From Cyanidioschyzon merolae (Eukaryota): DNA of 64,000 bases. Made by a program: the position numbers and the translations under genes. The stretch lies in NCBI GenBank assembly GCA_000091205.1, contig AP006488.2; one strand, written 5' to 3'. Below, in pieces: positions 10,805 to 61,108 of the stretch. Each line of letters starts with the position of its first letter. The first letter of the stretch is position 1. Under the pieces are notes generated by a model, which saw only the letters and a list, made by a program, of their open reading frames with translations, was not told where the DNA came from and ran no database searches.

Positions 10805-10950
10805 CATCGATTCGCTGATAATCATAACAGCGTTTCTCTGGGATCCAATATCGTTTAAATGAAGCAGGGATCATCGATTCGCTGATAATCATAATAGCGT
10901 TTCTATGGGATGCAATTTCGTTTAAATCAAGCAGGGATCATCGATTCCAC
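10805..10950. repeat. Tandem repeat: 67-bp unit x ~2.2 copies (minisatellite-like), intergenic
   Basis: The unit catcgattcgctgataatcataacagcgtttctctgggatccaatatcgtttaaatgaagcagggat starts at 10805. The second unit is at 10872 with ~6 mismatches. A partial third unit at 10939 diverges after catcgattc. Confidence 0.85.
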
Positions 10951-15700: not shown

Positions 15701-16572
15701 TTGGACACGATTTCCGCGATGGCTCAATTCCAAGACACTGTTCCGTGCTAACAGAAAACAAAGAAGGCTCTGGGAGCGTATCCAGTGAGAGGTTTCCTGC
15801 CGCCTTTAAATGCAGTTTTCTCGATGGCTACATACTGAAAAGGATTTGTCATTCGAATGGAGTCGGGTATTTCAAGCGATACCTTCAGAGTACGTTCGGC
15901 ATGAGCCAGTCAAGGAGTCTTTATATATCGACGTCAAATGCTTCCCTTCTTCCACCTCGCGTCACGAACTGCTGCATTCACGAGTTGCTGTTCAATGAAA
16001 AGATCAAAACATGGGTAATACGCAATTTGAGCATGCTACTCGTAAGGAATAGAGAATCATAGACGCCTGTGCGTATGCATTTGATCATCATTTGGGTTAT
16101 TTGACGAACCTTTGTTCAACGGCGCCACGATGCATCTTAAAGGCGGCGACTTGCTGAATTCTAGCGGCGAAGATTCAATGGAGCCGTTCCGAACATATGA
16201 CCAATAATCCCAGAGCTAGGTATGCATCCGTATGCCATAATTGCTGTATCTTGAATGTCTAAGCTGTGCAAATAACAAAAGTTGGGAATAAACGAAATGC
16301 AGGAACAGAGCGAGCGCTTTACGATTCCACAGTCAACTGACACGGGTGTGGAGGCGTGCTCGCGGTTCCGCCATCGCGTCCGTCTGCTGGAACCCGAACC
16401 CTAAATCCATCGGTTTATCGAGCTCCGTCACGATCACTTTTATCATCAGCTCATTTTCCATAACGATTTCCTTGAGACCATATGCTTCGCACCCTTGCAG
16501 TGTTGCAGCAGAACTATGTGGTCTTCCGTTCATTGATGAGAAGACGCCCCGCAGCGGATAACAGATGAAGCG

Positions 16573-16584: not shown

Positions 16585-17525
16585 GGTTACGCTACAGCGT
16601 CGATATCTTCAGGTTTCGAGGCTTTAGAGGTACATAACGACCCACTGGCCTCCATAGAGCAGCATGCATTTGGCTGTATTCACAGCATGCCAGCTGGTCA
16701 TCCTCGGCATGGAGCATGCGCAAGCTTTTTGGCAACAGCCGTATCGGCGGGATATATTTCGCGGGGATTTTTCTGCCGGAGCAGAAATTCTTGTGAAATT
16801 TTCACATGATCGTGGCGGCGTCGGGAGCGCACACTGATCGACAGGCGAATAAACGCTGAAGGTACGAAACAAGCGTAGATTCTGCTGCGTCCGTTGCTTC
16901 TGTCGCCAGTGCAGCAGGTAGTGTGCACGAGCAAGCTACCTTTTCGATCGAACCAGATTCATGGCTCGCTCGGGCGCTCGCCAGCATCCAGCTGTAGTCT
17001 TACTTTTCATGGGACAGTAGCTCCGCTCTCTGTTAAGAAACAACTGCTTATATTCCCAGTCGAAGAGGTGTTCGATGACCATGGCTCTTGGGAATTTAGT
17101 CCATTGCACAAGAACCAAGTGAGGATCTTTATTCCGCGCTAGTTTTGTTGAAACGGACTCCTGCGAACAAAAAATGCACAACCATATTGCTACACATCGA
17201 TTACTGACTGAGGCGGATCACAAACTGAGGCTGCTTGCATGAACTTTCAGCGTCGCATGCCGGCGTCAGACTGAAATAGAACACTGAACTGCTCGCTGCG
17301 TTTGTGCCTTTTGTTTTTACAGACATTTTTATACTTACAGCTTCGACATTCGCCTTTTATCAATGATTGCTTGCGTATCCACACGTGGTTTCCAGAGTCT
17401 CGGTCGAGCTCCCCGAGTGGATAATTCGAGTCTCTGCCTCTGTACCTAGCTTCATTATCGTCATCGAAATCATTTGCTAAGCACTTGTAGAGAACTTTGT
17501 GAAAGAAACGAAATCACAAGCCGAT

Positions 17526-18116
17526 TCATACTTGCAAGCGTCCACTCTTCCCTTTCCTTGAGTGAACCATGCTAAAATCACACGCTGCTCTTGGTATAGG
17601 TCTTTCTGTTTCAAAGTAACTCGTCCCGCAGCGATTCGGCCGACCAGATTGAGGAGCAAAGAGTACACGACGCTGGTCTAGAACGACTTTCAAAGGTCGT
17701 GCCGAAAGTTCGTTGATATTTAACGTAATGTGATCGATTCCGTTCGAAAAGCATGCTCTCCCCTCTTCGTGACGATTAACGATACGGGATTCGATACCGT
17801 CGTGGTACATCTCTCGAAATACGTCCTTAGAGGTTTCGGTCCTTTCTGCAAGCATGAATAAGGGTCGAGGGCTTAGAATTCAGTCACGGCGGCGATCGCT
17901 TTTTTCGGGGAGTGCGTCAACGCTCTTCACGACGGAAGCACAAGCGGATAGGAAGTACTTGGCATGGAGACCAGCATCGATATTCCTTCCAATGTTTTGT
18001 TCAGTCACGAACAACGGCGCATGCCACAAATCTGCTACAGAATCGAACAGTGTGGGTTCGCATACGCAACATGCCGAGCGCTTGTACAAAGTAGATTTCC
18101 CAAAAGAAGCCCTCAA
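17526..18116 (-). CDS. Candidate methylmalonyl-CoA epimerase / glyoxalase-family (VOC) gene in two exons (18116..17888 and 17845..17526) joined across a putative 42-nt intron (17846..17887). Tentative.
   Basis: Minus ORF 17526..17855 encodes EMYHDGIESRIV..GIDHITLNINEL...RRVLFAPQSGRPNRCGTSYFE. This resembles the C-terminal half of methylmalonyl-CoA epimerase (ELLHPLG..GGMHHICIEVDNI...KPVIFLHPKDCGGVLVELEQ). The upstream minus ORF 17880..18116 ends with ...VDALPEKSDRR, which resembles ...SEAVPLPEHG. Splicing GTGACT...TTGCAG (phase 1) joins the two ORFs in frame as ...EKSDRR-Q-RTETSKDVFREMYHDG. Confidence 0.35.
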
Positions 18117-18589
18117 TCCCAGGTTACAGCTCAGGACGCGGAAATGGTAAAGAGCTTCCAGGGGAGCCTTCTGTACCCATAGCGGGCATGTAGCGAGTGA
18201 CGACGCAAGCTTTCACGTGTCACAGCGCGACCTTTGGAAGAGTAGGCTCGAGGAGGAATCGGATACCTGAGCATAGCCGAGTGTCATCGCTGCGAAGGGT
18301 GCACCGAGGCCGAATAGGAAGAAAATGATTATGGTACACGAGGCGAAGATCGCAACTTCTTCAAGTGCATGAGCTGCAATGACAACAGTCGGTAGCGGTC
18401 TCATCGTGGCGTATGCGCAACAATAGAAATCCTTCGACTGCTGGCAAAGGAGCTGGAGAAACAAAATTAACTGGCTACTGAAAATGGGAAATGAGAAACG
18501 CAAAGGAAGCAGTCGCGGTAAAAGTTCGCAGCCGCTCTTGTTGAAGACACTGGGAAGAAACCAAAACTTTCACGGGGACTCCTGTTTTG

Positions 18590-19660
18590 GCTAGGAGCAA
18601 CCTTTACATTTTATTCTGACCCGGTTGCAGAATATTATGGTCCTCAAATCAATCCTGTCCCACCCTGGCAGCGCTCTATAGCCTGAGATCTGAATCACTA
18701 TGCAATGCACCGTACATATGAATGGCGTATTGCTACTAGGATATCTATTCGTTCCTGAACAGTTCAAAGAGGACCGCATTCCTCCTTTAGGCTAGGTATA
18801 TCACAGTACTCAGATAGCCGACGAAGACGTAAGGGAGGAAGTAAACGCGCCCTGCGAAAAAAGCCGATACTCCCAAACACTCCTTGCCCGTTCATTGCAG
18901 AGAACGACCCGTTGATTAGTTTAAGGAAAGCAAAAGCCACAATAGTAGTCATCGCGGGTGTCTCTGTTCATCACCAGCTTGTTCGTATGGTCCTGGAAAG
19001 ACTTGGATACAGTCGCAAAAAAAAGAGTTCTAATTCGCCCAGGGGCATCTTTCAGGGAAATCGCAACCAAAGCGTAGCTAGGGAGTCACGATCCGCATGA
19101 AGACCAGGTACGTCGGATTTTTTCAGTCGATGAGACTTGCTTTTGATGAAACGGTCGGAAAGTATATGGGTATTCGTGGAGCGGGGAGCCCGTTGTACGT
19201 AAGGTTGAGCTGGTAGAGAACGACGACATTATCACCTGTTCTAGCTGCACTGTATTCATTCGGTCGCCTCAGTTTCAAACATAATTGAGGCTCAAACAAT
19301 AGCAACAACAGATTCGTCGAGTCACTAAACACTTTTCCCTAACGTCTGGCGACATCGCTCTATGGAACGGAGTTGTGTTGCATCGTTCCCCTTGTGTTTG
19401 AGCTTTTTGCCGAATCTATTGGGGTGGAGCTGATTGTCATTCCTCCTTTCTCATCGTAGCTCTACCCGATCGAACGAGTGTTTTAAGCCGCGAGACGTAA
19501 TGATCGCTCTACAGGGTGAATCGCTGAAGCTTTCAGCACGGTGACGAGTCGGGTCACTTGTCAACTTTCTTCCGCAAGTCCCTCTCCTTCCGGGCAGGTC
19601 CTCTTCGAAGGTCATAGAGAAAAGCGTTCACTTGAAGAAACATAAAATTCAAGGTAAAGT
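18590..19660 (+). repeat. Dispersed repeat family R2, copy 2 (boundaries approximate)
   Basis: Collinear with copy 1 through the blocks gagatctgaat, agtactcagat, aaagcaaaagcc, tcaccagcttgttcgtatggtcctgg, cagtcgcaaaaaaaagagttctaattc, ttttttcagtcgatgagacttgcttttgatgaaacggtcgg, gagaacgacgacattatcacctgttctagctgcactgtattcattcggtcgcctcagtttc, ccgcaagtccctctccttccggg, gcgttcacttgaagaaacataaaattcaagg. Confidence 0.6.
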
Positions 19661-20363
19661 TTTTGACTTGAAAGTCGAGGTTCCTGGAGGCGCGTTTTCG
19701 CTGGTTTCGACACAAAACGGAACAAATCCTCTTCTCCCCGACCACCACGCAAAGAAGATCAAGTGAAGAAGAGGAAGAATGGAGGAGATGGGCGGAAAAA
19801 GATGTTTGCCCTTCAGAGCAATGAGGAGACGAGTGATACAGAGGTCATGATTTTTAGCAACTTTGTATTGATGAGTTCACCCAGCGGCTCTGCACGCATG
19901 AGGTTCGTGAATCGAGACTTCAATGCCTCCAGGCAATATCGGACGCCTTGTGGAGCTGAAGACGAGACCCCCAGAGCTGACGTGAGCGAACGTTGTGGCG
20001 ATCTCTGGTGCTCGAAGCGTAGAAGGTGAAGCTGAAGCCGATACCAACTGGCCGATCGAAAAAGTCTAAGAGGCGTCTGCGAGTGGATATGCATTTACCC
20101 TGCACGGCCGTAAGGCATTATTTGTTTCAATAACATTTGTATCACGACCAAGGTAACAGAACTTTCGCTCAGTACCGACGAAAATCGATCCTCAAAACGC
20201 AGCCCAAACAACACACCCCTGGTCAAGCTCAAAATCTTGCGGACTGTGGCACAGTCGCCTTTAATCCTGAAAGTTCTTTGGTACCGCGGCGGCAGATGCA
20301 GGGTCGGCAACATCCGTTGCACACGAAGGTGTTGCTCATTCACGAAAAGGTCTTGCATTGCTT

Positions 20364-24212: not shown

Positions 24213-24326
24213 GATGCAACGAAAGTGGCTAAGCGCATTGACGTCGACTGCGAACAGGCGCAGTGGAACATCTTCGATTCCTTAGAGCTGCTCCTCTTTG
24301 CTGGGGCGCTGCGAAGGGGTTACACG

Positions 24327-25539: not shown

Positions 25540-26640
25540 GGAGCCACTGCAACGCTGCAGACATCGCTGCAACATGGATAAGGGCGCTCGGCGAAGCTCA
25601 TAGCGTCTTTCAACTCAATCCGGTAACACCCGGCAGCGGTTTATAGCAAGAGATCTAAATGTCTGTGAAGTGTACCGTACAGATCACAAACGATTTGCCT
25701 GTGAGACATATTCTTCCGGAAAAGTGCATGGAGGACTGCATTGCTCGTTCAGGTCCGTCATACCAGAGTACTCAGATGGTAGAGGAACACTGAAAGAAAC
25801 AAAGATATACATGCTGTGCCAAAAACCGATGTCCTCAAAGACTGCTTGCGGTCCATGGTAGAAAGCGACCGGTCGATCAACTTACGGTTAGCAGCTGCCA
25901 CGATGGTAGCCACCACGGGAGTCGATGCTTCTCACCAGCTTGTTCGTGTGGTCCTGAAAACACTGGGGTGCAGTCGCCGAAAAGAGTCCTAATTCACGCA
26001 CGACTATCTTCGATTGAAAACGCAACGACACCGTTCTGAAAACTTAGCGATCAGCACGAAGCACATGGACGTCGATTTGTTCTTTCAGTTAATGAGAATT
26101 GCTTCCGACGAGACTGTCGCTGCCTATGTGAGTTTTCGCGGAGAGTGAGCCCATTGCATGTACGATCGAGCTCGTGGAGAACGACGACATGTTCATCTTT
26201 TCTAGCTGCAGTATATTCATTTTGCGGCCTCGGTTTCGCTCACAGAGGAGGCTCATACAACAGCACCAACCAGTTCGTCAAATCGTTGGAGAAAGTTCTC
26301 TAACGTCTCGCGACGACCCTCCACCGGAAATTGTGATGTCTCAGCATCCTTCCTGCATTCGAGCCTTTGCCGATGCTATCGGGTAGAGCTGCCCGTTTAA
26401 AATGGTATCGCACCAGAAACAGGGTCTCGTCTCCAGCACCGCACATGGTCTGGTATTCAAAGCAGCGTTAAACTCGCGGCCTACAAACTGCTTGCATGCA
26501 TTGACGTTATTGGAATGCATCAATGCGAGGATTCCTCGAACTCCTGCCCTCCGTGCCACCAGTGTGTCGTTATAGTTCCCTCGGGCATATACTTTTCTCG
26601 TCTACCTCCTTCTTCTTCAGCTTTTTCGTCACTTCCTCTT
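25540..26640 (+). repeat. Dispersed repeat family R2, copy 3 (boundaries approximate)
   Basis: Collinear with copies 1 and 2: caagagatctaaatg, agagtactcagatggtag, gatggtagccaccacgggagtc, tcaccagcttgttcgtgtggtcctgaaaacactggggtgcagtcgccgaaaagagtcctaattc, gagaacgacgacatgttcatcttttctagctgcagtatattcatt, gctcatacaacagcaccaaccagttcgtcaaatcgttggagaa, cctccttcttcttcag. Confidence 0.55.
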
Positions 26641-32655: not shown

Positions 32656-35336
32656 CGGTGGCGCTTGAATCCCATGGATTAAAGTGGTATATGGCCGCTA
32701 CACCCATCTCCGACTTTAATGGGACACTGCAGAGTTCGTTTTGTTCCTGCCTTTTGGTTTTGCTCAGAATATTTTTAGAAGAGCAGCCTCTAAATTCCAA
32801 ATGCAGCAATGTAGGTGTAGAGGTTTATGCGAATGTATTAAGATTCTTTGTGGTCTTTTCGGAATGGCTTCTTCAACATATTTGCGGTGGATTTCGTTGC
32901 GCTACAGGGAACAAGATGATTTGGGACGCACTCGAATAGGAGTTTCCAGAATAATAGATATCCCTGTTCAAAACATAAGCATAAGTCTCTAGTTTCTCTG
33001 ATCCGTAAGCGTAGGACGCTCAAATCACGCATTCTTCAAGTTTTCGATCATTCTGTCCCTATGACAACTCGCGGGCGCTGCAAATGTGAACGCTGAATTT
33101 ATGAGGAAACAGAGACTCGACGACGCCCCATGAGAAGTTGTTCGCAAATTCGTGCCGAACCTTCACTGCATTTGTTATGTCAATAATCCATTTCAAATGA
33201 AAGACGAAATCTTACGCCCTTTTTGGCCCTTAACGCCACGGAATTCGACGGCAACATGACAACAATCACAGGATGTGCTTCCAGAGGCTACCGTCCCTTC
33301 TGTTTGAATAAAAAAGCGCCATTGACTCGGACTTGGGTCATCGCGGCAATCGTTTTCAGTGGAGATAGCGACAGCGTTTGCATGAAGGAAACGTATACAG
33401 ATAGATATTTTTCGACTTATCTGCGCTCTATTTTCATTCCGGTTTTCGTTTCATTTAGGGTGACGTCGCGCTCCTAGAATACTTTTCCGAGTGTGAAATC
33501 GCGCGTTTGCGTCTGCGGCCAAGAGAGTTCCTGCGGAGAGCATCGCCCAGAAGAAGCGCGTGCTCGTAAAGTACGCTATCGGGCCTGGAAACAGAGGGAG
33601 CGTTGAGGCAATCCTCATGCACCCCTCAAGAGCAAATACGGAACAATGAAGCCAGCCTTGATGCTCTGCGGGGCGGTGCTCTGACGAAAGCTGTGGTGAA
33701 TCTGTGGGATAACCTCACCGCAGACATCAATCATCGCTGCGAAAGGCGCATCGAGGGTGTGTTCGCGGAATATGAACAAGGCCAGCGAAGCAGAGATCGC
33801 CATTCCCGCTTGTGCGTGAAGCGCATCGGCGAAAGCCGCTAGCTTCGAAATCGGTAATTAAACGCTGCTATCAACATCCTTCGACTACGGACATTAGATG
33901 TGGAAAGACGGAAAAAGCCAAAGTATTCAGAGCAAGAGTTCTGTGTTGAATAAAACCAAAAAGCGTTCTACGAGCAAAGAATTCAAATAAACACCCTGTC
34001 GCAGACGCCTCCAAGCCCTTTTTCCATCGGCCGCCTGCTATAAGTTCCAGTTTTTTCCCAAGCGCACCTCGAGCCTGAGAGGTTGCCCCTTGAAGCGGGA
34101 TCGCGTCAGCTCTGCGGGTCTCGTCTTCAGCACCGAAAATCATCTGATATTGACGCGGCGCTGATGTCTCGGTTCACGAACTCCTCGCGTTTATTGCCGT
34201 TGATGAAACGAGCCAATGCAAAGATTGCGCATATTCGTGCCTTCTGTCCGAAAACAGTCTCGTCATCATTCCGTCAGGCAAGCACCTTCTTTCGTCTATC
34301 TCTTCTCCTCTTATTTGCCTCGTCACTTGCCCTGCTTCGCTCGATGATCAGCGACGGAAGCACTGTTTTCGTTTTTTGTCGAATCCGGGAAGGAGGGGAC
34401 TCCAGAATTCTCGACCTCACTGTCCATACCTCCCACCTGGCTTTATAATTCTCAAAGTGAGCACTTTGAAGGCCCATGCTTTAAACCGCGAAAAAGCATT
34501 TTTTTCAACACACATTGGGGCGGGGCACGATTGAGGTCAAAGTCTTTAAGAGGTAGCTCCGAGTTCGCAAAGGGGGAACTCGGTGGATTCTTTGCCAAGC
34601 GATGCACAGTGCTCTGTGGTCGGAGCACGATGCCTTGCTGCTAGCAAAATTTCCGGCCACAGCAAAACCAAGATCATTTCAGCTCCTCTCCGAACACTTT
34701 TGCACTCTCAAAAGATCACCGATTCTTTCAATCTTTGTAACAGGTGAGAATCTATTACGAAATTAAATATTACTAATAGGGTAAAAGATATTCTGGAAGC
34801 TCGGCCCACACGTCTAATCACATCGATCGCTCATTGTGTCACAATCGAGTTGTCCTAGCGAAGCTAATGAGGGATATTCGAGAATGTCTCACGCTGAAAC
34901 ATCTTCGAGTTCAAGTTCTTCAGGAGCCGAGGGCATTCGGCATTCAACAAAAGCGGTTCTGAGCGAAGAATATATTTAAGTTGCTTTTCAACGTGCGACG
35001 GGGGCTATGCTCGAACAAAAATCGGACTCGTCTAGACTGTACGAAACTCGCCAAGGGTATGCGTTATCTATCGAGTCTTTCGTTTCTCGGGCATCTTCTA
35101 GTGGCGGATACATCGCGAAACTGCATCTATCTGGAGCATGTAGCAATATCCTCACTTTTCAAGCAAACAAAACTGGCTATTGTCTCATTTCCTATATTCT
35201 GAACTGGCTGAGCTCGCTCGTGAGTTGCAGTTAGACATGAACTGATTTCCGTAAAGCTGTTGCGCCATGAGTACAAGCGTCATAGGACGCGACGCGAAGC
35301 GGAATAGAGCTTTTACTCCTGTAGAGCTCTGCGTCG

Positions 35337-36385: not shown

Positions 36386-37516
36386 TTACAGTGGATTCTT
36401 TTCAACGAGCTCGGCCGGGAGACTACGGATTCGAATCTTCAAGAACTGTTCGATTTGCTGTAATTGAAGTTTGTTTTCCTTGGTGATAATAGTGATTCCA
36501 ATGCCCCTTCGGCCAAATCTTCCACACCTTCCGACTCGGTGCACATAGATGCTCGGTTTCAACGGCACATCGAAGTTGATGACGAGTACAACCCCAGGAA
36601 TATCCAAGCCCCTGCTTGCAACATCAGTTGCCACGAGAACGTTCGTCGTTCCCGAACGAAACTTATCAATCGCTGCGACCCGCTTGTCCTGAGGCTTTCC
36701 CCCATGAATGCCCTGAACTTCAAAGCCACGGAGTGAGATTTTCTTCTCTAACCAATCTGCTTTCTTCGACTCGTTCGTGAATATTATGCACTGAGATCTG
36801 ACCAGGTATCGTGAAAAAATATCGAAGACTGCACTGAGCTTCCATTTTTCTTCAGGAACTTCAACACGATAGTGCTGAATGCCAGCGTGCCAGTATGCTT
36901 CCGTGCTGCCTGTTGTAATGAAGTGCATGTCCCTTCGAAGGAAATCATGCAGACTCTCCATACCTGACATTGATGCAGTTGCAGATACGACAACGACTTG
37001 ACAAGTTTCTGGCATTATTCTGCAAATACGGGACACTTGTTTCTCAAGGCCAGCCGAAAGCATCTCGTCAATTTCATCTATGACCAGCAAGCGCACCGTG
37101 TTAGCACTCATCGTTCCTGTATTTGAGAACTGTTGCAGAATTTTCCCAGGTGTGCCGCTCCATACGTGCGCGGCTCCTTTGACCTGGACTGCACCATGGC
37201 ATACCGAGCAACGCAGGCACACGTATTTAGAACCAATACGCTCGATCAAAACTGCTGTTTGCTGCGCAAGCTCTTTAGTCGGTGAAAGCAGAACAGCTTG
37301 GAGGCAGTTTTCTGCTGGGTTCACAACGTGGTTTACTGCTATGGCCAGCAGTGTGGTTTTCCCGCTTCCGCTGTGATCCTGCAATATAATATTCTCTTCT
37401 TTTATGATAAAAGGAAGGGCTTTGGCCTGGATTCCTGAAGGAATAAAAAAGGAGCACCGTAGTAGGCCACACTGAACTGCTGGTTTTAAGCCGAAATCAA
37501 GAAAAGATTGCTGCAT
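36386..37516 (-). CDS. eIF4A-like DEAD-box ATP-dependent RNA helicase; motif II reads DEID. The ORF is open to 37609, but the likely start is the Met at 37516, right at the edge of repeat R1.
   Basis: Q-motif region FLDFGLKPAVQCGLLRCSFFIPSGIQAKALP. Motif I DHSGSGKTT. Ia PTKELAQQ. II LVIDEIDEML. III VSATAS. V/VI ILVATDVASRGLDIPGVVLVINFDVP and HRVGRCGRFGRRG. These are close to eIF4A (HRIGRGGRFGRKG). Confidence 0.85.
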   Translation of the reverse strand: MQQSFLDFGLKPAVQCGLLRCSFFIPSGIQAKALPFIIKEENIILQDHSGSGKTTLLAIAVNHVVNPAENCLQAVLLSPTKELAQQTAVLIERIGSKYVCLRCSVCHGAVQVKGAAHVWSGTPGKILQQFSNTGTMSANTVRLLVIDEIDEMLSAGLEKQVSRICRIMPETCQVVVVSATASMSGMESLHDFLRRDMHFITTGSTEAYWHAGIQHYRVEVPEEKWKLSAVFDIFSRYLVRSQCIIFTNESKKADWLEKKISLRGFEVQGIHGGKPQDKRVAAIDKFRSGTTNVLVATDVASRGLDIPGVVLVINFDVPLKPSIYVHRVGRCGRFGRRGIGITIITKENKLQLQQIEQFLKIRIRSLPAELVEKNPL

Positions 37517-37530
37517 GTCAGCAGACTGCG

Positions 37531-39658
37531 GAGGCAAATCGTCCCGCCACCACCTCTCCACAAATATGAGCACGCTTTCGCTTCTGGCAGAGGCAGCCCC
37601 AGGTTTCACACACTACTCAAGCTCCGGCGTTGTCCGAAACACACTATCCTACACACTGCTCCCCAGCAGCAGGCGCGGAGACTGATGATCGTCTGGTCGG
37701 CCGCACGGCGCGCGGTGCCATGCACTGGAATCGGTAGGCAGCAGGTACCACAGCCTGCAGCGTATACGATTAGAAACGGCTATACTGAGCTATGGAAAAC
37801 GAGGTCTATGTTTTGTTGCAGCGAACCTCAGCCATAAATTGAGTATTCCCCATGAAAACCAGGAACGACCGTTCCAGGCAGAGCTTGCAGACGTTTGTTG
37901 TTTCGACGGTAGGTTTACCACGACGCGCATAAAAGTATTCCGCTCAGGTGCGGGCCACAAACACAGCCTCGAGCACAGTGCTCCTGCGAGCCGCGAGCGC
38001 CTTGATAACGTGTTGAGTAACGGGAGCAACGCGAACACAGCGGCGATGTGAACAGAACGTGCAGTCCTGCGGCCTGTCGCGCGCGAGATAGCGCTGTAAG
38101 AGTCGCGGTGTCGGGCTTTTTCGCGGACGCTCGCGTGAGGCCGAGTCTCGTGCAGCGCCCAGCGACAGACCACGTGCACTCGTGCACTCGACTGCGCGCT
38201 GCTGCCTGCATGTGCAGCACCAGCTCGGATACCAGCGTCAATGCCAGAGCTATCGAAACGCCAGGCTAGGATGGGCCAGTGAAGCGCTCGCTCTGTGCCT
38301 GCCTTTTGAACATTTCCCCGACTTTTCCTCGATACACGGCCTCGACATTCAATGTGCGGCTCTAACTGCTACTCGACTCAATGTTAGAGTTAGAATCCTC
38401 GGTCGTGTGTTCAGGGCGGCTCGTTTGACTCCTTTCTCCTGGCATTCGTGGCGCCAACGGAATCAAGATGACTCGGGGCGCCGTCGAACACGCGTTGGTG
38501 GCATATCCGAAAATATGGTTTTCCGGTTCGAGCGCCCAAGCGTCCACGCTTGTCCTTGCCTAAAATGTAGCCTGCCCGGATCACGCATGCTTCGCGTACT
38601 CAATGGACCTGCTTGGAGGCCACCCGTGGGCACTGCAATTTGTGCAGATGGATTTGCGAGGCGGACAACTCGACGTCGTGCCCTGGCGACATGCTCGCAG
38701 GCTCATGCCGGGCGTTCACTTTACTTGACACGCCGAATGGTGGATTCGGTTCGAGAGACCGATCGTGCGCTGCTTGCGGCCGTCGACGACTCGGCATTCG
38801 ACAGCAGCATGGTACCACTCAGGGCTGGTACGCTCGCAGATGTTCCTGTCTCCCCTGTTCGGACTGCAACGAGACATGCACCGGGCCTCGAGGCACCGCA
38901 TGGATCGCTCTCAGCAGAGCGTGCGTCACTGCTGAGCACGAAGCGAGTGCAGAGGGGTCGACACTTCTGGATCGACAGTTCTTGATCGAGCTCGTCTGTA
39001 CTGATATCCCAGAACTTGCATCGTCATCGACAACATTGCGTTCCGCAAATGCTTTGTCGAACGGAGCAACGAACGCATTCGTATGCAGCGGTTAGCGTAC
39101 TCGCCGAGTGATCGCCAAGAAGAAGCGGATCATCATCGCAGGGTCCGGCATCTGAAGCTGAGCCCGAGGGGGGCATTGACGGGTGTCGTCTGTAGCCATA
39201 GAAGGCATGCACTGAGCGACGGAGCTGGTGTCCTCGTCCCCCAGAGCAGCCCACGGAGGGGCAGGCGCAGTGGACACACAGGAATCGCGGATCACGGTGA
39301 TGGGTCCGCGCTGCAAAGCGCTTACCTGGGCTGTTTATAGAAGAGGTGCACGAATCGAGTGCGGCATGGACCCGAACTGCTGCCTGATGATGAAATGCGT
39401 TCGCGAGAGCGGGAAGCAGTAGAATCGGGGCTTGCGCGTTGCTATCAGCAGACCTCGACTGCTGAGACTGAACCATGAGGCACCGGAGAGACCTGCTCAT
39501 TTCAGGCGGGGGATGAGATAGAGAGCGATGAAAAGGTATCGGTTGCTGGAAAGCCCGGAGAGACTTGTAATGATGACAGTGGGAACTGACCGATTGTTTA
39601 TGGTGCACACCTGCTTTAGCGAAGTGGGACGCGTTCCACTTGAGTCTGACATGGGTAT
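37531..39658 (+). repeat. Repeat R1 copy A (full-length, ~2.13 kb); near-identical to 54995..57095, and its right ~1.39 kb matches 59721..61108
   Basis: ORF-track proteins in A and B are identical or differ by one residue at a constant +17464 offset: 37790..38179 = 55254..55643; 38182..38985 = 55646..56449 with a single H/L difference; 38613..39095 = 56077..56559. The flanks diverge at gaggcaaatc (left) and after gacatgggtat (right). Confidence 0.9.
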
Positions 39659-40914
39659 AGCTGCAAACCCATGAACGATTCAAGCTTTTGCCCGATCGAC
39701 GCACAAATGCCAGTATTTTAGACCTCATCGGTCAAGTGGCTTGCCTTACCTGTGGGGAGATACCCAGGGGAACGCGACGCGGATACACTCGCAGGTGCTC
39801 AGACAGCCGGTATTCTAGCGTCAATTCGAGTTCCCGGAATCGCTACGAGCTTTGGGGGTTGTAATTTTCTTCCAGCGTCGCTTATGACTGTTCGATTTGT
39901 ACCATCTCCAGGCATCGCTGCGGAGGGAGCATAAAATGCAGCCAAACGAGTTGCAAGATGTGCGAAACTGGCGGGCTTCGTTCCTGGCGTTGGCGCCTGA
40001 TGGTGCTAACGCACTCCCGTCAGAGATGCCCGAGCATATTCTTAATTTTGTCTTTTTCGGCTCTATTCGCCGCTCAAAACTGGATCGCGCGTTTGGAGGA
40101 AGTCACCGCATCGGTTGTACCATTGCCATGAAGGTTGCGACAGCGGTTTAGGGAGCACTTTCCACGGCTCGTGGCGGTGCAGTTGCTACCCAAGCTCCCG
40201 GGACTGTTTCATTGAAAACTGTTATCTGCGCTGAAGGCGCTGTTGCTTTGAAATGGGAGGACTTCCGCTGCAGTTACAGCCGCTTCGGTTTTGGTGTACA
40301 ACGAAGACGTAGGCAAAACCACCTCGCTGAAACTTGCTGTGGCAGCGAACCCTGCGAGCTAAGCATAAACGAAAGCTGTTTTGAAAATACGTCGCCGCGT
40401 CTTGTCTAAGACGCAGGGGATAGGCGGATGTCCGAGGGACGTATTCGAAGGACTTGCACGTTCACGAATGAGTGCATAGTATCGAATAATTGTGTCTTTG
40501 TAACCAGTATTATGAGTAATCTTCCGCCTGACCGTCAAACGTATCCAAAACAAACGAGGCGGATCCTCAGGTATAATACGTATCTTCGAAAGCGTATTAG
40601 AAGTCTTAACGCAGTAACAAGCCTTAACCGGTGCGCTGGTGAATTACTACAGAGTTTTCGTACCTTACCGGCTTTCTTACTATTTGAATAGATCCATAGT
40701 GGCCGCCTTTCGTTTCTTTGTCATATGGCGGCTTTCTCGCACACTGCGTGCATTCTCTCTGGAACCAATTAAAAATGGCGCCTTCGCTTGACCGCACGCG
40801 ACTGTTTTGGACCACTCGAAGTAAGAAGAAATCTCCACAAGTCCCAGAGCAGAGATTCTGCCAATGAATTGCCGATTCGTATGCCATAATCTCCACCTGC
40901 AGCGTTCCGTAACT

Positions 40915-44645: not shown

Positions 44646-46313
44646 TTTGTTTAAAATGAAGAGCTTCCTGGGAAAGCTCCAGGAACGGTCTGAAGTACGC
44701 GCAGTGCGCGTTCAAACAGCCAACTAAACGTCATTATTTGCGAGATGAGGAATTCATGTCGAAAATTAAGCGTCTCTCCATAGGCCTCAGATTGGAACGG
44801 AATACTGAACTCTTCATTCTGTTTCCAGTATTCGTTTTTTCGATTTTTTGATGTACAGTCGCGACCTTCGAAGTGCAGCATTTAAACCCGACGGACTGAA
44901 GCTCACATTTAGTTTTCTGGGCTTTTTTTCTGGAATGGCTTTTTCGACTCTGTGTGGCTAGAGCTCGTTTCGCGGCCGTCACAAAGATAATTCGCGAATC
45001 CCTCGAACACGGGTTCGTAAAACATACAATGTAATCATCCAATTCATTCGTATAAGCCTCTTATCTTCGCATTTAGATGTAGCGCTCCTTAATCACAAAT
45101 TCTTCAAGATTTTATTTTTTTTGTTTCGAGGCAACTCTTGCGTGCGGCAAATCTCATAGATGCATTGGGAACTAACACATCTCGAAGTTGCACCCCAAAG
45201 ACTTCTTCACAAGCTTATGCCGGAAGCTCAATGAACCTGTCGAGTATAATCATTGATTTCGTCCGAAACACAAGTCCTCCTCATTTCGTTGCCGTCGGCG
45301 AGACTGCATTCGACTGCAGTATGATATCTCTGTCGAGATGTGCTCCCAGAAGCTCCTATGTCTTCCGTTTGCATGGAAAAGAATGTTGGACCCGAGCTTT
45401 TCTCATTGCAGCGATCGCCTCCACTTGAGAGGGCGTTACAGCTTTGAACGAAAGGAGCGTACCTGGATCGAAATTTCTCGATTTGTTCTCCAGCATTTAG
45501 TGCGCATTCGGTCCCTTTTCATAACAAGCATCACCGCTTTCTACAAATCCTCTGTCGAATGGAACAATGCGTGCTTCGGCATGCAGCGGTCAGAGTACTC
45601 GCGAAGCAGATCGCACGGAATAAGCCCAAAATCGTAGGTACAGCACCTGACTCGGCAACGGAGGATGGCATCGACGGGAGCCCTCTACTACCGTCATAGA
45701 TATATACTGGGCGATGAGGCAAGCGTTCGCACGCCAGACGCCGGCCACCGGAGAAGAGCCGTGGTGGACTTATGTGAACAACTGACCACGGTCAAATGAA
45801 ACCGCTGCGATGGGCGCTCAGAGGCCGCATATGAAAAAGATAAAAATGGCAAGTAATTCTCAGATGGCAACTTCCATCTGCATAGGAAGTGCGTTAGCAG
45901 CAGCCGTAGGCAGCAAAATCGAGGCTTTGACACTGCCATCTACATGCCCCCAATGCTGGAAACCGAGCAGGAGGAACAGGAGTGGCCAGTTCGTTCAAAG
46001 ACGGAGGTAAGGGAGTGGAAAGGAAATCTATCGCGGAAAAATATCCGCAAAAGGCTCATGGCACGCCACTGGAAACACACCAAACCATTAGTCTATGCGT
46101 CCGCCGTAGAAAAGCGGACCCCTTCCGTTTCATTCTAATATAGGTGAGGCGAGTTCCGCCGGGCGGCGAGGTGCGTCAAGCTTCGTGAACTCGAACAGTC
46201 GCCCCGCAGAATTGCAATAACGTCTACGAGTTGCCCGAGTCCATATAATCATAATCGAATAACAGCAGATCCTCCGTTTATGTCAACAACCTAAAACTCC
46301 TAAACGTCCTTTG

Positions 46314-52575: not shown

Positions 52576-54906
52576 CTATTCAGGGTCACGTCGGATTCCC
52601 AAGGCTCTATCGATTGCAGCAAGCAGATCTACGTCACTCCGATGACGGCCTTGAGCGCCCTTACCAGGCTTACCGTGCAGGGGCTCTGCATCGGTATCTG
52701 CTTTTGAACCATTGCTGGCCTCTCTTGGGGCATCTAAGCGCTGCAACGGGCGTGCATCCAGCCCCTGCCTTTGTGTTCGCGATGCAAATGATGCCGGGCT
52801 CGGAATGCTCGATGAGGAATGCTCAGAGGCAACCGCTTCTGTAATCCGATCTGGAGGACGCGGCGGTTGCGTGGACGCCCTTTGAGTGATCAAGAGTTGC
52901 CGAACCATCTCGCCCAGTGCCTTGCGCTGGCTCTCGTTCATCGGATGGAGGGTGCTCAACAGCGACGTTGCCGACATTCTTGCCCGTGAATTCTGTGGCA
53001 TCTCACGAGCGAATACGACAGCTTGCGCAATGGCTCTCAGGCGCTCTTGCATGAGACGTTGCTCCAGGGCCTCGAGTGCTTGCTGCTGCATCTCTGGAGT
53101 TAGGTTCGGCATCACGAGTACTCGTTCCTTAGCAGCTTCGGTCATTTGTAAGAAGAACGGGTCCCGTCGCAGCCACTCTACAAGGTCAGGAGCAATCCGA
53201 TGTCGCATAGTTTCCTGAACCACCTCCCGGCCTGGAGTCAAAAGTCCCGTTCCATGCCCCGCATTCGCTCCACTAGCGGGCTGTGCGCTCTGCCTGGAAA
53301 CAGCACCGAGAGGGCTCGGCATGCTTGCACGATACTGGAGGGAGCTCAACCGCTGTGGGATTCCCGCAGAGGCTTGACTCGATTTGCTCTCAGCAGCCGC
53401 GTTCGCCACCTGATTTCGTTCTGTGGAAGCTGCGTTGGAGGCCTCGTCCGGCACACTGTTTCGCCGTTGCACAAGATCAGAGAGTTGGCTTCGAATCGAT
53501 GATGGCCCGTTGGACGCCGAGGAAAGCGACGCGGCGACTGCTCTCTGCGTGCTCGTAGGCGCTTGATGGAGACGCGGTAGCAACTGGCGACTTGGGTCAG
53601 TCCAAAATGTGCCGGGCTGAGCAAAAAAGCTTTGACCGTGGAAGATCCCATTCGTGGTTCTGTTCTGCGAGAGCTGCCGAGGGTCTATGAGCCATGATGA
53701 GCCGAAAGAACGTTTGCTCTGTAACCGCAAAATCGCATGGGCAATCGTATTCGTTGATGCTGGCAGAAGCTCCTCTTTTGTAGAGAGCTGCTCTTTGGCG
53801 GGGTGCACGTAGCCTCTCGCACTGGTTACCTTTTTCTTCATAGCCGGCGGTAAAGTCATCTGCATGATTCTCTCCCAAGACATGTTCAGATACAGAAGAC
53901 GCGCAAGGGGATCCAACCGATCCGGCATGCTCTCTGTCTCAGCGCTATTCGGTTTTGACGCATATGGTATCCGCGGCCAAAAATACTTGCGGTGAAAGGC
54001 TCGGCATTTGGCGGCCTCTGTGGCAACATTGCCCGCCGTGATCCGGGAGTTGGTCTCAGCGATACCAGCGTTCCTCGTCACTTTGACAGTTGAAAGTGCA
54101 GCAAAGCTCCGATACAAGCTCAAATCTGCGTCTACCGGAGCAGTGTGATGCTGCTGATCACGATTGCCGCTGATCGCACGCGCAGACTGCATTCCGTGCA
54201 TGAAGAGCAACTGCGAGTCGTACACTTTCCCTACACGCTTTGCATGTCTGCCGAAACGCGTTTTTGGTGCACCATCCTCGTCATCCAGAAGCTGAGAGAA
54301 ATAGATTTCAGGAAACTCAAACGAAAGCACGACATTATGCAGATCGCTGTCGCACATATTGCGCTGGAACTGCGTGGCGACGTTCGTCACCTGCTTGGCA
54401 CACTCATTGAGGAGCGGAACCCATCGATCTGGGCAGCAGCGTAATATATGCTCATAGACCCGGGACTCGATTACAGGGCGGCGGCAGTTTTTGCACACAT
54501 ACAATACAGGGCTGCGAGTCATAAAAATGTCGACATCCTCCAGCGCAACGCTGGGAGGCATGGATAGCTTCTGCGCGAGCTTCGCATCGTCTACGCTATC
54601 TCCCTCGACGGTGCTATCCAAGTACCAAGAATCGAGTCTATCCTTCAGAAACCCAACAAAATCCACGTTTATCTCTTGTCCACACGGAAGTGTTGCACAC
54701 AGTTCCTCAGAGAGGAAACTTATCCTCCTTTTCTTCTCAAGCGGGTACTCGTGGCTTTTCGAAATTTGTGGCGGAGGAGGACGTTTCCGCTGTACTTTAT
54801 CAGCAAAGCAGCGAGCAAGCGCACGGGCAGAAACGCAAACATCGGCTTCATCGGACAGTTCTAGGAGCTCGTGCATGATTTGCTTTTCTGAAGCGTCAAA
54901 ACCCAT
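52576..54906 (-). CDS. Protein with an Sgf11-type C2HC zinc finger (SAGA deubiquitination-module Sgf11/ATXN7L3-like) and a long Q/S/A-rich low-complexity C-terminal half
   Basis: CKNCRRPVIESRVYEHILRCC fits C-x-N-C-x-R-x-[IV]-x2-SR-[FY]-x2-H-[LI]-x-[KR]-C, as in ATXN7L3 ([20 protein letters not shown]). The ORF is 776 aa. The start lies 89 bp from the left edge of repeat R1 copy B. Confidence 0.45.
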   Translation of the reverse strand: MGFDASEKQIMHELLELSDEADVCVSARALARCFADKVQRKRPPPPQISKSHEYPLEKKRRISFLSEELCATLPCGQEINVDFVGFLKDRLDSWYLDSTVEGDSVDDAKLAQKLSMPPSVALEDVDIFMTRSPVLYVCKNCRRPVIESRVYEHILRCCPDRWVPLLNECAKQVTNVATQFQRNMCDSDLHNVVLSFEFPEIYFSQLLDDEDGAPKTRFGRHAKRVGKVYDSQLLFMHGMQSARAISGNRDQQHHTAPVDADLSLYRSFAALSTVKVTRNAGIAETNSRITAGNVATEAAKCRAFHRKYFWPRIPYASKPNSAETESMPDRLDPLARLLYLNMSWERIMQMTLPPAMKKKVTSARGYVHPAKEQLSTKEELLPASTNTIAHAILRLQSKRSFGSSWLIDPRQLSQNRTTNGIFHGQSFFAQPGTFWTDPSRQLLPRLHQAPTSTQRAVAASLSSASNGPSSIRSQLSDLVQRRNSVPDEASNAASTERNQVANAAAESKSSQASAGIPQRLSSLQYRASMPSPLGAVSRQSAQPASGANAGHGTGLLTPGREVVQETMRHRIAPDLVEWLRRDPFFLQMTEAAKERVLVMPNLTPEMQQQALEALEQRLMQERLRAIAQAVVFAREMPQNSRARMSATSLLSTLHPMNESQRKALGEMVRQLLITQRASTQPPRPPDRITEAVASEHSSSSIPSPASFASRTQRQGLDARPLQRLDAPREASNGSKADTDAEPLHGKPGKGAQGRHRSDVDLLAAIDRALGIRRDPE

Positions 54907-54994: not shown

Positions 54995-57095
54995 GAGGCA
55001 AATCGTCCCGCCACCACCTCTCCACAAATATGAGCACGCTTTCGCTTCTGGCAGAGGCAGCCCCAGGTTTCACACACTACTCAAGCTCCGGCGTTGTCCG
55101 AAACACACTATCCTACACACTGCTCCCCAGCAGCAGGCGCGGAGACTGATGATCGTCTGGTCGGCCGCACGGCGCGCGGTGCCATGCACTGGAATCGGTA
55201 GGCAGCAGGTACCACAGCCTGCAGCGTATACGATTAGAAGCGGCTATACTGAGCTATGGAAAACGAGGTCTATGTTTTGTTGCAGCGAACCTCAGCCATA
55301 AATTGAGTATTCCCCATGAAAACCAGGAACGTCCGTTCCAGGCAGAGCTTGCAGACGTTTGTTGTTTCGACGGTAGGTTTACCACGACGCGCATAAAAGT
55401 ATTCCGCTCAGGTGCGGGCCACAAACACAGCCTCGAGCACAGTGCTCCTGCGAGCCGCGAGCGCCTTGATAACGTGTTGAGTAACGGGAGCAACGCGAAC
55501 ACAGCGGCGATGTGAACAGAACGTGCAGTCCTGCGGCCTGTCGCGCGCGAGATAGCGCTGTAAGAGTCGCGGTGTCGGGCTTTTTCGCGGACGCTCGCGT
55601 GAGGCCGAGTCTCGTGCAGCGCCCAGCGACAGACCACGTGCACTCGTGCACTCGACTGCGCGCTGCTGCCTGCATGTGCAGCACCAGCTCGGATACCAGC
55701 GTCAATGCCAGAGCTATCGAAACGCCAGGCTAGGATGGGCCAGTGAAGCGCTCGCTCTGTGCCTGCCTTTTGAACATTTCCCCGACTTTTCCTCGATACA
55801 CGGCCTCGACATTCAATGTGCGGCTCTAACTGCTACTCGACTCAATGTTAGAGTTAGAATCCTCGGTCGTGTGTTCAGGGCGGCTCGTTTGACTCCTTTC
55901 TCCTGGCATTCGTGGCGCCAACGGAATCAAGATGACTCGGGGCGCCGTCGAACACGCGTTGGTGGCATATCCGAAAATATGGTTTTCCGGTTCGAGCGCC
56001 CAAGCGTCCACGCTTGTCCTTGCCTAAAATGTAGCCTGCCCGGATCACGCATGCTTCGCGTACTCAATGGACCTGCTTGGAGGCCACCCGTGGGCACGGC
56101 AATTTGTGCAGATGGATTTGCGAGGCGGACAACTCGACGTCGTGCCCTGGCGACATGCTCGCAGGCTCATGCCGGGCGTTCACTTTACTTGACACGCCGA
56201 ATGGTGGATTCGGTTCGAGAGACCGATCGTGCGCTGCTTGCGGCCGTCGACGACTCGGCATTCGACAGCAGCATGGTACCTCTCAGGGCTGGTACGCTCG
56301 CAGATGTTCCTGTCTCCCCTGTTCGGACTGCAACGAGACTTGCACCGGGCCTCGAGGCACCGCATGGATCGCTCTCAGCAGAGCGTGCGTCACTGCTGAG
56401 CACGAAGCGAGTGCAGAGGGGTCGACACTTCTGGATCGACAGTTCTTAATCGAGCTCGTCTGTACTGATATCCCAGAACTTGCATCGTCATCGACAACAT
56501 TGCGTTCCGCAAATGCTTTGTCGAACGGAGCAACGAACGCATTCGTATGCAGCGGTTAGCGTACTCGCCGAGTGATCGCCAAGAAGAAGCGGATCATCAT
56601 CGCAGGGTCCGGCATCTGAAGCTGAGCCCGAGGAGGGCATTGACGGGTGTCGTCTGTAGCCATAGAAGGCATGCACTGAGCGACGGAGCTGGTGTCCTCG
56701 TCCCCCAGAGCAGCCCACGGAGGGGCAGGCACAGTGGACACACAGGAATCGCGGATCACGGTGATGGGTCCGCGCTGCAAAGCGCTTACCTGGGCTGTTT
56801 ATAGAAGAGGTGCACGAATCGAGTGCGGCATGGACCCGAACTGCTGCCTGATGATGAAATGCGTTCGCGAGAGCGGGAAGCAGTAGAATCGGGGCATGCG
56901 CGTTGCTATCAGCAGACCTCGACTGCTGAGACTGAACCATGAGGCACCGGAGAGACCTGCTCATTTCAGGCGGGGGATGAGTTAGAGAGCGATGAAAAGG
57001 TATCGGTTGCTGGAAAGCCCGGAGAGACTTGTAATGATGACAGTGGGAACTGACCGATTGTTTATGGTGCACACCTGCTTTAGCGTAGTTGGACG
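54995..57095 (+). repeat. Repeat R1 copy B (full-length, ~2.1 kb)
   Basis: See copy A. Its right end diverges slightly earlier than in A and C, after tagcgtagttggacg. Confidence 0.9.
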
Positions 57096-57305
57096 TCTCT
57101 AATTTTGTCTCATATAGATATAAATCAAGTTTACCCATTTCGGAGACAAGATTTGCTTGCGGATCGCAGCCGCCGCTCCCTATTCGTTGACACCGGGCCA
57201 TACGCTGCCCACTAGAGTTTGCGAAAAGCTAGTTCGAGCCCGTACGTCTGCTAGGAACTGACTCAAACAGGCAGTTGATATCGGTTTCCTAGATCTCGCA
57301 GGGCT

Positions 57306-58970: not shown

Positions 58971-59720
58971 GAACAGTGCTGGCACTTGGTTTAAGTTCTG
59001 GCTTTGGATTCAGATGAGAAGCCGTCACTGTTTGTAATGAAACAGGATTGCAGGCTCGCACATCTACGCGAGCGGAAAGCCCGCGACGAATGCGGAGAAG
59101 GCTCAAATTTCCGTTACTTGTTTGAGAGTGCTCTGACAGGGACGGAAATGGGTGTTTGAAGGGAGGTCATACATTCTGAGCTGCGCATCATGATGTGAAA
59201 CAGCGGATCCCGTGGTTGTTCTCGGCAAAGCATCTGCATCCCTGAGGGTGCAAACGCTTCCAAGGACCAAGCGGAAACTGTACTCTCGCTTACCGCTGCA
59301 TGCTACGATTGAAACCTTGAAGTGCATACAATGAGGTGCCTAGCATAAAAGGAATATACTTTATTGGATGATGTGCGTCTGCGCCAGGTTGTTCTGCAGA
59401 ACGCCTTGTGCTGGGCTGCCGATACGCCTGGAGTGTGCAGCGCTTTGAGCCGCTTTGCTCTATCCTTATCCATAGCAAGCGCCCAGCTGAGACTTTGGTG
59501 AGGATAGTATTCAAACAGCTCCCACGGATTCCTCATTCGCAGTTCGAAAGTATCCTGCTCCATGTCAGAGCCAAGTCAGCGCCGTTTGAATATATCTAAT
59601 GCCAGAGAACTCTAGGTGCCTGAGCTGAATCGCGGAGTCGGTATCTGCTGCGCTTGCCTGCTATGCATGTCTTTGAGGCCGTGGTATCATGCTGGCATTC
59701 TAAATCCCTAAATTACTGGA

Positions 59721-61108
59721 ATGGGCCAGTGAAGCGCTCGCTCTGTGCCTGCCTTTTGAACATTTCCCCGACTTTTCCTCGATACACGGCCTCGACATTC
59801 AATGTGCGGCTCTAACTGCTACTCGACTCAATGTTAGAGTTAGAATCCTCGGTCGTGTGTTCAGGGCGGCTCGTTTGACTCCTTTCTCCTGGCATTCGTG
59901 GCGCCAACGGAATCAAGATGACTCGGGGCGCCGTCGAACACGCGTTGGTGGCATATCCGAAAATATGGTTTTCCGGTTCGAGCGCCCAAGCGTCCACGCT
60001 TGTCCTTGCCTAAAATGTAGCCTGCCCGGATCACGCATGCTTCGCGTACTCAATGGACCTGCTTGGAGGCCACCCGTGGGCACGGCAATTTGTGCAGATG
60101 GATTTGCGAGGCGGACAACTCGACGTCGTGCCCTGGCGACATGCTCGCAGGCTCATGCCGGGCGTTCACTTTACTTGACACGCCGAATGGTGGATTCGGT
60201 TCGAGAGACCGATCGTGCGCTGCTTGCGGCCGTCGACGACTCGGCATTCGACAGCAGCATGGTACCTCTCAGGGCTGGTACGCTCGCAGATGTTCCTGTC
60301 TCCCCTGTTCGGACTGCAACGAGACTTGCACCGGGCCTCGAGGCACCGCATGGATCGCTCTCAGCAGAGCGTGCGTCACTGCTGAGCACGAAGCGAGTGC
60401 AGAGGGGTCGACACTTCTGGATCGACAGTTCTTAATCGAGCTCGTCTGTACTGATATCCCAGAACTTGCATCGTCATCGACAACATTGCGTTCCGCAAAT
60501 GCTTTGTCGAACGGAGCAACGAACGCATTCGTATGCAGCGGTTAGCGTACTCGCCGAGTGATCGCCAAGAAGAAGCGGATCATCATCGCAGGGTCCGGCA
60601 TCTGAAGCTGAGCCCGAGGAGGGCATTGACGGGTGTCGTCTGTAGCCATAGAAGGCATGCACTGAGCGACGGAGCTGGTGTCCTCGTCCCCCAGAGCAGC
60701 CCACGGAGGGGCAGGCACAGTGGACACACAGGAATCGCGGATCACGGTGATGGGTCCGCGCTGCAAAGCGCTTACCTGGGCTGTTTATAGAAGAGGTGCA
60801 CGAATCGAGTGCGGCATGGACCCGAACTGCTGCCTGATGATGAAATGCGTTCGCGAGAGCGGGAAGCAGTAGAATCGGGGCTTGCGCGTTGCTATCAGCA
60901 GACCTCGACTGCTGAGACTGAACCATGAGGCACCGGAGAGACCTGCTCATTTCAGGCGGGGGATGAGATAGAGAGCGATGAAAAGGTATCGTGTGCTGGA
61001 AAGCCCGGAGAGACTTGTAATGATGACAGTGGGAACTGGCCGATTGTTTATGGTGCACACCTGCTTTAGCGTAGTTGGACGCGTTCCACTTGAGTCTGAC
61101 ATGGGTAT
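59721..61108 (+). repeat. Repeat R1 copy C (left-truncated, ~1.39 kb; corresponds to A positions 38271..39658)
   Basis: ORFs at 59812..59997, 59857..60435, 60063..60545 and 60474..61058 are identical or near-identical to the A and B equivalents. C shares the B-specific variants (ATRLAPGLE; HKLPCPRV; GHGNLCRW; TSQGW). Confidence 0.9.

Follow-up and report, generated by a model that had tools for sequence, protein, structure and literature searches.

Three near-identical copies of a repeat, here called R1, lie within 24 kb of each other in a 64,000-nt stretch of contig AP006488.2 of the alga Cyanidioschyzon merolae (assembly GCA_000091205.1; this whole stretch is referred to as the window), and they end close to the start codons of four genes. 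How did the repeat come to lie there? The original prediction proposed that R1 carries promoter activity in one or both directions or that it inserts preferentially into promoters or 5' untranslated regions (5'UTRs). From the analysis described below we consider it rather likely that R1 arose recently as a tract of conversion or duplication on an old, lineage-specific intergenic repeat, and that the upstream region of one gene was carried to a second gene in the process.

The copies were delimited by self-BLAST of the window. Copy A extends over 37531-39658, of which 37531-39631 equal copy B (54995-57095) with 99.43% identity over 2101 nt, positions 38271-39658 of A equal copy C (59721-61108) with 99.21%, and B and C are 99.63% identical over 1361 nt. 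All three are in direct orientation and differ at only 15 variable sites. The boundaries are sharp in the alignments: A and B have their left end in common to the nucleotide, A and C their right end, and no residual similarity was found in the flanks beyond R1.

We considered whether the copies or their junctions could have been made by repeat collapse or misjoining in the source assembly. Metagenome assemblies do break at R1 or cross it chimerically, and in some contigs the single-nucleotide polymorphisms (SNPs) of the copies are mixed. However, each of the six junctions recurs in several independent metagenome assemblies from different samples, so that the arrangement is not a misassembly, and contigs of ~15 kb equal the spacing between A and B, from which it follows that it is the short-read assemblies which break at R1. 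An artefact is thus extremely improbable. Two contigs (L005 and L029) join the left flank of B via R1 to the right flank of A, and L020/L034 join the left flank of A to the right flank of B. These joins are probably path choices of the assembler; unequal crossing-over, with duplication, circle formation or deletion of the 17.5-kb A-B segment, would give the same junctions.

Neither protein look-ups nor a metagenome scan with a 22-mer revealed further young copies besides A, B and C. The 22-mer, taken from the right end of R1, was present in nine JGI metagenome contigs, every one with the right flank of A, B or C, and the Logan and ENA contigs carrying open reading frames (ORFs) of R1 likewise all mapped to one of the three copies. 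At locus A, R1 was found at -14 of the neighbouring gene in 10 out of 10 contigs from 10 samples, with no empty-site allele among them.

The gene starts were then established by comparison with relatives. The gene order of the window is fully conserved in contig JANCYV010000006.1 of Cyanidiococcus: GH31, Fe-S, GST, Trs85, helicase, DNA polymerase alpha subunit B, kynureninase, Cpn10, a 513-aa protein, Sgf11-like, CEPT, SPC12, and NTP-transferase. The gene to the left of copy A encodes a DEAD-box helicase whose best named relatives are from Cyanidiococcus yangmingshanensis (56% identity), a cyanidiophyte (55%), and Cyanidium caldarium (43%). In sequence look-ups it was matched exactly only in JGI, ENA, and Logan metagenomes, and the window was taken to be nuclear DNA of a cyanidiophycean red alga. 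Residues 1-376 of the helicase align with residues 1-376 of the Cyanidiococcus orthologue, and two 376-aa orthologues match from end to end. The start codon is therefore the ATG read as CAT at 37514-37516 on the minus strand, as originally predicted, and a 407-aa version with a GTG start at 37609 was rejected as an artefact of a bacterial gene caller. Neither this 407-aa version nor MOSC was on record in sequence look-ups. The Sgf11-like gene has a weak Sgf11 match in Pfam (E-value 0.034), and its residues 6-775 align with residues 5-771 of the 771-aa neighbour of CEPT in Cyanidiococcus. The starts of CEPT and SPCS1 were confirmed by orthologue alignment as well (Table 1). The nucleotides in between the R1 ends and the start codons number 14 for the helicase, 88 for the Sgf11-like gene, 210 for CEPT and 94 for SPCS1, in agreement with the distances of 89, 211, and 95 bp given previously for the last three. 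Both the three copies and their proximity to four gene starts are thus confirmed by self-BLAST, orthologue alignments and independent assemblies.

To look for older relatives of R1, the young copies were masked and the window was searched with R1-A using nhmmer. Five diverged segments were found with E-values from 1e-19 to 4.5e-88, and all of them match R1 positions ~703-2126; positions 1-700 have no further copy in the window. Judged from these matches R1 is composite, consisting of a left segment of ~700 nt, which we call L, and of a right core of ~1.4 kb (positions ~700-2128), which belongs to a repeat family, E. Seven E loci are present in the window with common left (~R1 700) and right (R1 2128) ends; the loci O4 and O5 are one E copy split by an insert of ~2 kb (13513-15555). 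The old copies are 51-57% identical to R1 and also among themselves, and this star-like divergence suggests an old burst. Because the old copies match only R1 positions ~703-2126, copy C is not truncated: the idea that C is an R1 copy shortened at its 5' end in the manner of a long interspersed nuclear element was rejected, C being a full unit of the older E family. A full HMMER (phmmer) search with a 267-aa ORF of R1 returned 29 diverged ORF relatives with 29-51% identity, and the ten that were looked up occur only in metagenomes, which argues for many more old E copies in this alga. A protein search with a 169-aa stop-free segment of L gave no match, its own query sequence included, and is uninformative as to whether L belongs to a family.

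The diverged E copies lie at unrelated loci, have common termini and are missing from the orthologous sites of relatives. E is accordingly an old, non-coding, lineage-specific family of interspersed repeats. That it is non-coding is indicated by the codon score of the R1 ORFs (-0.09 to -0.01 compared with 0.07-0.15 in real genes) and by their GC content at second codon positions (GC2), which is ~0.57 (0.575) compared with ~0.45 in real genes. The old E copies lack a common ORF; their stop-free stretches reach at most 126-160 aa and the frames vary. Substitutions in E show no clear codon (3-nt) periodicity. The ORFs of R1, E and a second repeat family, F2, gave no Pfam hits, Rfam yielded nothing for the window at the gathering threshold or for 37300-40300 at an E-value threshold, and a scan of the window for tRNAs was negative.

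How the young copies arose can be read from their margins. At the right end of B and at the left end of C near-identity stops in register inside E, and diverged homologous sequence follows. The 27 terminal nucleotides of B (57096-57122) are identical to A and C at 16 of 26 positions, as are old copies (16-17 of 26), compared with 12 differing sites between A and B in the preceding 2101 nt (Fisher P 6e-15). Likewise, the 90 nt to the left of C match R1 positions 651-740 and the old copy O3 at old-copy divergence (local alignment z 4.2-4.4, a score reached by 1-2 of 500 shuffles). With such diverged margins B and C must have been resident E copies already, whose cores were overwritten. The differences between A and B are unevenly distributed, 2 in 1103 nt on the left and 10 in 998 nt on the right (P 0.017), and this mosaic suggests more than one event, the latest of which would have covered L and the start of E.

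The left part of R1 has a different history. L is 99.7% identical over ~700 nt in A and B, and its left junction is non-homologous at both loci and without microhomology. Consequently, one locus holds L natively and the other has received it, and as only A and B carry L, one of their two genes has a copy of the upstream region of the other. We therefore envisage that homology-guided copying, either ectopic gene conversion or recombination with a copy of the element, recently brought three resident E copies, which point the same way within 24 kb, to 99.2-99.6% identity, and that the copies are not three fresh insertions. In one such event, involving A and B, the copying would have run past the left end of E and taken L along, ending at a non-homologous junction 14 nt from the start codon of the helicase or 88 nt from that of the Sgf11-like gene. 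One of these two genes would thus keep its native upstream region, and the upstream region of the other would have been replaced by the copy.

Several points weigh against this scenario. Homologous recombination between copies of only ~55-62% identity is inefficient and mechanistically awkward. The exact natural right terminus that A and C have in common is more easily explained by a transposition intermediate or an extrachromosomal copy than by a simple conversion tract, and L could belong to a rare family that has no copies in the window. SNP phasing among the R1 copies is unreliable in short-read assemblies. The arguments on the direction of copying between A and B are split both ways: A is favoured as the donor as it is the union of all young sequence and as a junction at -88 spares more of the 5' region than one at -14; B is weakly favoured as the home of L by its GC content and by the length of the repeat-free intergenic region, which is 1038 nt as compared with 1580 and ~1000 nt in relatives.

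The processes invoked, that is, interspersed repeats, ectopic conversion and co-duplication of flanks, are well known and are met here in a new lineage. Non-allelic conversion occurs between dispersed repeats such as yeast Ty elements, human Alu and L1 elements, and segmental duplications. As in these ectopic or cDNA-mediated systems, a near-identical tract lies in register inside diverged paralogous repeats, the copies lie near each other and point the same way, and homology resolves one end while end-joining resolves the other and takes flanking unique DNA along. In contrast to them, the resident copies of R1 seem to have shared no more than ~55-62% identity, a low value for classical homologous recombination, and the mechanism is here read from the sequence. 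Repeats can also transduce or capture their flanks, as do L1 (5' and 3' transduction), Pack-MULEs and Helitrons with their gene fragments. Common to these and to R1 is that a unique flank was copied with a repeat to a place directly upstream of another gene; R1 differs in having no poly(A), target-site duplication (TSD), terminal inverted repeats (TIRs) or Helitron termini, and in the blunt non-homologous junction of the copied flank.

What does the shared segment mean for the two genes? L is situated at -14 of the helicase and at -88 of the Sgf11-like gene, in the same orientation relative to both, which are minus-strand genes; the same sequence thus lies directly upstream of the verified starts of two unrelated genes. 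As there are only 14 unique nucleotides upstream of the helicase ATG, it follows directly from the geometry that the 5'UTR and promoter of this gene would lie in L within R1 or that transcription would read through all of R1; the original prediction of a promoter and 5'UTR inside the repeat holds in this form. The first 188 nt of L contain no ATG on the gene strand, so that the helicase start is preceded by 202 nt free of ATGs, and they are compatible with a 5'UTR. L is thus putatively promoter-active. No 5'UTR or transcription start site (TSS) data for cyanidiophytes were found in the literature, and no endogenous promoter, TATA box or TSS of C. merolae has been mapped (PMC12770821). With the promoter architecture of the Cyanidiophyceae essentially unmapped, the presence of the same L before two unrelated genes amounts to a natural promoter-swap experiment.

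The second repeat family, F2, is also old and non-coding. Its copies are ~1.55 kb long, ~65-75% identical, contain no Pfam domain and often abut E copies (O2, O3). E and F2 account for ~44% of the window's non-coding DNA. Hidden Markov models (HMMs) of E and F2 found no match in syntenic loci of ~100 kb from Cyanidiococcus, a third cyanidiophyte and Cyanidium, and sensitive blastn and tblastn searches of the syntenic loci with R1 were negative; between these species no intergenic DNA can be aligned at all. Without R1 the intergenic lengths are similar to those of Cyanidiococcus: 1270 versus 1363 nt from DNA polymerase alpha subunit B to the helicase, and 844 versus 807 nt from CEPT to SPCS1. 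The intergenic regions of C. merolae have been described as repeat-expanded relative to Cyanidiococcus (Cho et al. 2023, PMC9812998). The window agrees with that picture in belonging to a compact cyanidiophyte genome with hardly any introns, in which lineage-specific repeats have enlarged the intergenic regions, and differs in that the repeat families are not the same. It is a case of lineage-specific repeats that enlarge the intergenic regions of a streamlined eukaryote and break short-read assemblies.

The closeness of the repeats to start codons has to be judged against the arrangement of the genes. The genes on either side of B are divergent, and those flanking A and those flanking C are on the same strand, so that four of the six R1 ends are forced by gene orientation to face a gene start, and only the short distances are non-trivial. 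Across six repeat blocks the ends are 14-191 nt from ATGs and 166-1917 nt from stop codons. The ratio of the distance to the ATG to the sum of the distances to ATG and stop codon adds up to 1.26 for the six blocks (Irwin-Hall P 0.006, rising to 0.025 with L taken as native at A); this statistic is post hoc and has n=6. As to whether other copies also sit 5' of genes, young copies beyond A-C were not found, which leaves the old E family alone for a genome-wide survey, and the old repeats of the window are closer to ATGs than to stops. As the end of E that faces a start is the left one in two cases and the right one in three, either end can do so, which makes a directional E promoter unlikely.

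How short a functional 5' region can be in this lineage is illustrated by GH31 (minus strand, ATG at 24212) and the Fe-S assembly gene (plus strand, ATG at 24330; a GTG start at 24225 was rejected). These divergent genes have only 117 nt between their start codons, with the same spacing in Cyanidiococcus, and the gap is an extremely compact bidirectional promoter. Together with the mean intergenic length of 320 bp in Cyanidium (PMC9812998), this pair shows that functional 5' regions can be well below 100 nt. The bias towards ATGs may thus mean that repeats occupy dispensable intergenic DNA up to very compact promoters; a preference for open promoter chromatin is possible.

With these data the proposal that R1 is a discrete mobile element, having outward promoter activity or preferring promoters and 5'UTRs for insertion, with A, B and C as independent insertions, can be weighed. 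It would account for the exact left end of A and B and the exact right end of A and C, for the lack of R1-like sequence in the orthologous intergenic regions of relatives, and for repeat ends lying nearer to ATGs than to stops; the F2 ends close to the MOSC and GST start codons, at 38 and 110 nt, would fit as well. However, the ends of R1 show no hallmark of insertion. Elements with long terminal repeats (LTRs) have TG...CA termini and a TSD of 4-6 bp; the first letters of R1 are GAGGCAAAT, the last are CATGGGTAT, and the two flanks are different, which is not the structure of an LTR retrotransposon or a solo LTR. An LTR-type unit made of B, CEPT and C was rejected since CEPT is syntenic between its neighbours in relatives. 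There is no inverted repeat at the ends and no TSD in the flanks as in a TIR transposon or a miniature inverted-repeat transposable element, no 5'-TC, 3'-CTRR or insertion between A and T as in a Helitron in either orientation, and no tail and no reverse transcriptase or endonuclease domain as in a non-LTR retrotransposon or a short interspersed nuclear element, the left end of C being the natural end of the family. R1 thus lacks TSD, TIR, LTR ends, TG..CA, a Helitron end, poly(A), and any coding capacity, a transposase or reverse transcriptase included. Furthermore, L is not part of the E family, the junctions are placed, in register, within E copies that were already resident, the young copies number only three and are all local, the adjacent gene is at the left end of E twice and at the right end three times, and very short functional 5' regions explain the closeness to ATGs equally well, the statistic in favour of it being post hoc. 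We regard independent insertions of such an element as doubtful. Transposons that target promoters are exemplified by Tf1 in S. pombe, the P element and mPing. Like theirs, the repeat ends considered here are located between some tens and ~200 nt upstream of start codons; unlike these, R1 bears no marks of insertion and the searches revealed no set of independent young insertions, and the pattern is common to two unrelated old families and explicable by compact promoters. The original interpretation is thus supported in part: the unusual closeness to ATGs stands (P 0.006-0.025), whereas R1 as an element inserted into promoters is not supported, given junctions inside old E copies. The closeness of the right ends to CEPT and SPCS1 would have been inherited from old resident E copies, and the unrelated old F2 behaves alike.

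It is unlikely that E and F2 are promoter-proximal modules which integrate specifically at nucleosome-free 5' ends of genes or which are retained and homogenised for a promoter, insulator or terminator function; were this so, the copying of L with E to one of the two genes would amount to a recent promoter swap in nature, by which an RNA helicase and a SAGA-like factor have come under common regulation. Very unlikely, in our view, is that E and hence R1 represent a functional gene family, encoding a fast-evolving protein (the 267-aa ORF at 38182-38985) or a long non-coding RNA and kept similar by concerted evolution, although a transcription unit of its own would explain the placement. The 29 diverged relatives of this ORF and its intactness in A and B would fit, and the homogenisation of three copies could reflect selection. 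Yet, besides the non-genic codon usage and GC2, the old copies have no conserved ORF, mismatches lack clear codon periodicity, Pfam and Rfam give no match and the ORF starts are not conserved among metagenome relatives; DNA repeats at such identity yield translated hits anyway. A conversion or duplication tract upon resident E copies therefore remains the reading that we prefer.

Table 1. Features of the window, with the distance to the start codon that a repeat end faces (start codons verified or likely; HMM and nhmmer matches with E-values in brackets).
Feature	Position	Strand	Basis	Start codon faced
L in copy A	37531-38261	+	99.7% identical to 54995-55724; last ~30-70 nt grade into left terminus of E	left end of R1-A, helicase: 14 nt
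E element in copy A, young core and natural right terminus	38262-39658	+	E-family HMM match starts at 38262	
L in copy B	54995-55724	+	self-BLAST, HMM	left end of R1-B, Sgf11-like: 88 nt
Young E core, copy B	55725-57095	+	self-BLAST, HMM	
Diverged E right terminus, copy B	57096-57122	+	alignment in register with A and C	right end of E in B, CEPT: 183-210 nt
Diverged E left-terminal region, copy C	59631-59720	+	homologous to R1 651-740 and to old copy O3	
Young E core and right terminus, copy C (R1 741-2128)	59721-61108	+	self-BLAST, HMM	right end of R1-C, SPCS1: 94 nt
Old E copy O1, fills Cpn10-KYNU intergenic region	44746-46179	+	nhmmer match 44788-46145 (4.5e-88)	left end, KYNU (44645): ~138 nt
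Old E copy O2	32666-33943	+	nhmmer match 32710-33897 (6e-63)	left end, Trs85 (32553): ~150 nt
Old E copy O3	17226-18648	+	nhmmer match 17248-18624 (6e-56)	
Old E copy O4/O5 (16390-15556 and 13512-12906)	12906-16390	-	nhmmer matches 16331-15551 (1e-45) and 13490-13045 (1e-19)	right end, GNAT (12761): ~166 nt
F2 copy	1017-2495	+		right end, MOSC (2534): 38 nt
F2 copy	18576-20170	+		
F2 copy	25594-26396	+		
F2 copy	27502-26384	-		end, GST (27613): 110 nt
F2 copy	34469-33930	-		
F2 copy on contig L031	window-equivalent ~68538-69995	-		
Young repeat on reverse-complemented L031, copy 1	4819-7068 (window-equivalent ~64539-66788)			
Young repeat on reverse-complemented L031, copy 2	11090-13339 (window-equivalent ~70810-73059)			
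DEAD-box helicase coding sequence, 376 aa	36386-37516	-	Pfam DEAD and Helicase_C; orthologue alignment	
Unique spacer, 14 nt, helicase ATG to left junction of R1-A	37517-37530	.	sequence, self-BLAST	
Sgf11-like zinc-finger gene, 776 aa, ATG at 54906	52576-54906	-	orthologue alignment, weak Pfam match	
CEPT, CDP-alcohol phosphatidyltransferase, 554 aa	57306-58970	+	Pfam; residues 1-539 align with orthologue 1-538	
SPCS1, SPC12 family, 88 aa	61203-61469	+	Pfam SPC12 (5.6e-13); start aligns 1 to 1 with orthologue	

Some further features of the region were noted. The window as a whole has intron-free long ORFs on both strands and a GC content of ~52%. The insert of ~2 kb that splits O4/O5 holds a 147-aa ORF (14356-14799) without a Pfam hit. 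A 71-aa ORF (39936-40151, plus strand), for which no significant Pfam hit was found, starts 278 nt beyond the right end of R1-A and is a recurrent prediction of gene callers in metagenomes; if it is real, the right end of R1-A would face a gene start too. An intergenic tandem duplication with a 67-nt period follows a protein kinase gene (10805-10880 and 10872-10947, 93% identical).

Just beyond the right end of the window the metagenome contig L031 (reverse-complemented) carries another young repeat of 2250 nt. Its two copies, 99.87% identical and spaced 6271 nt apart, have an F2 copy between them; the second one reaches the contig end and an assembly loop is possible. The Cyanidiococcus orthologue of the IspD-like NTP-transferase gene (63275-63700 and L031) was matched in two separated blocks, which suggests an intron or a frameshift, so that the gene may be among the few in the region that are split.

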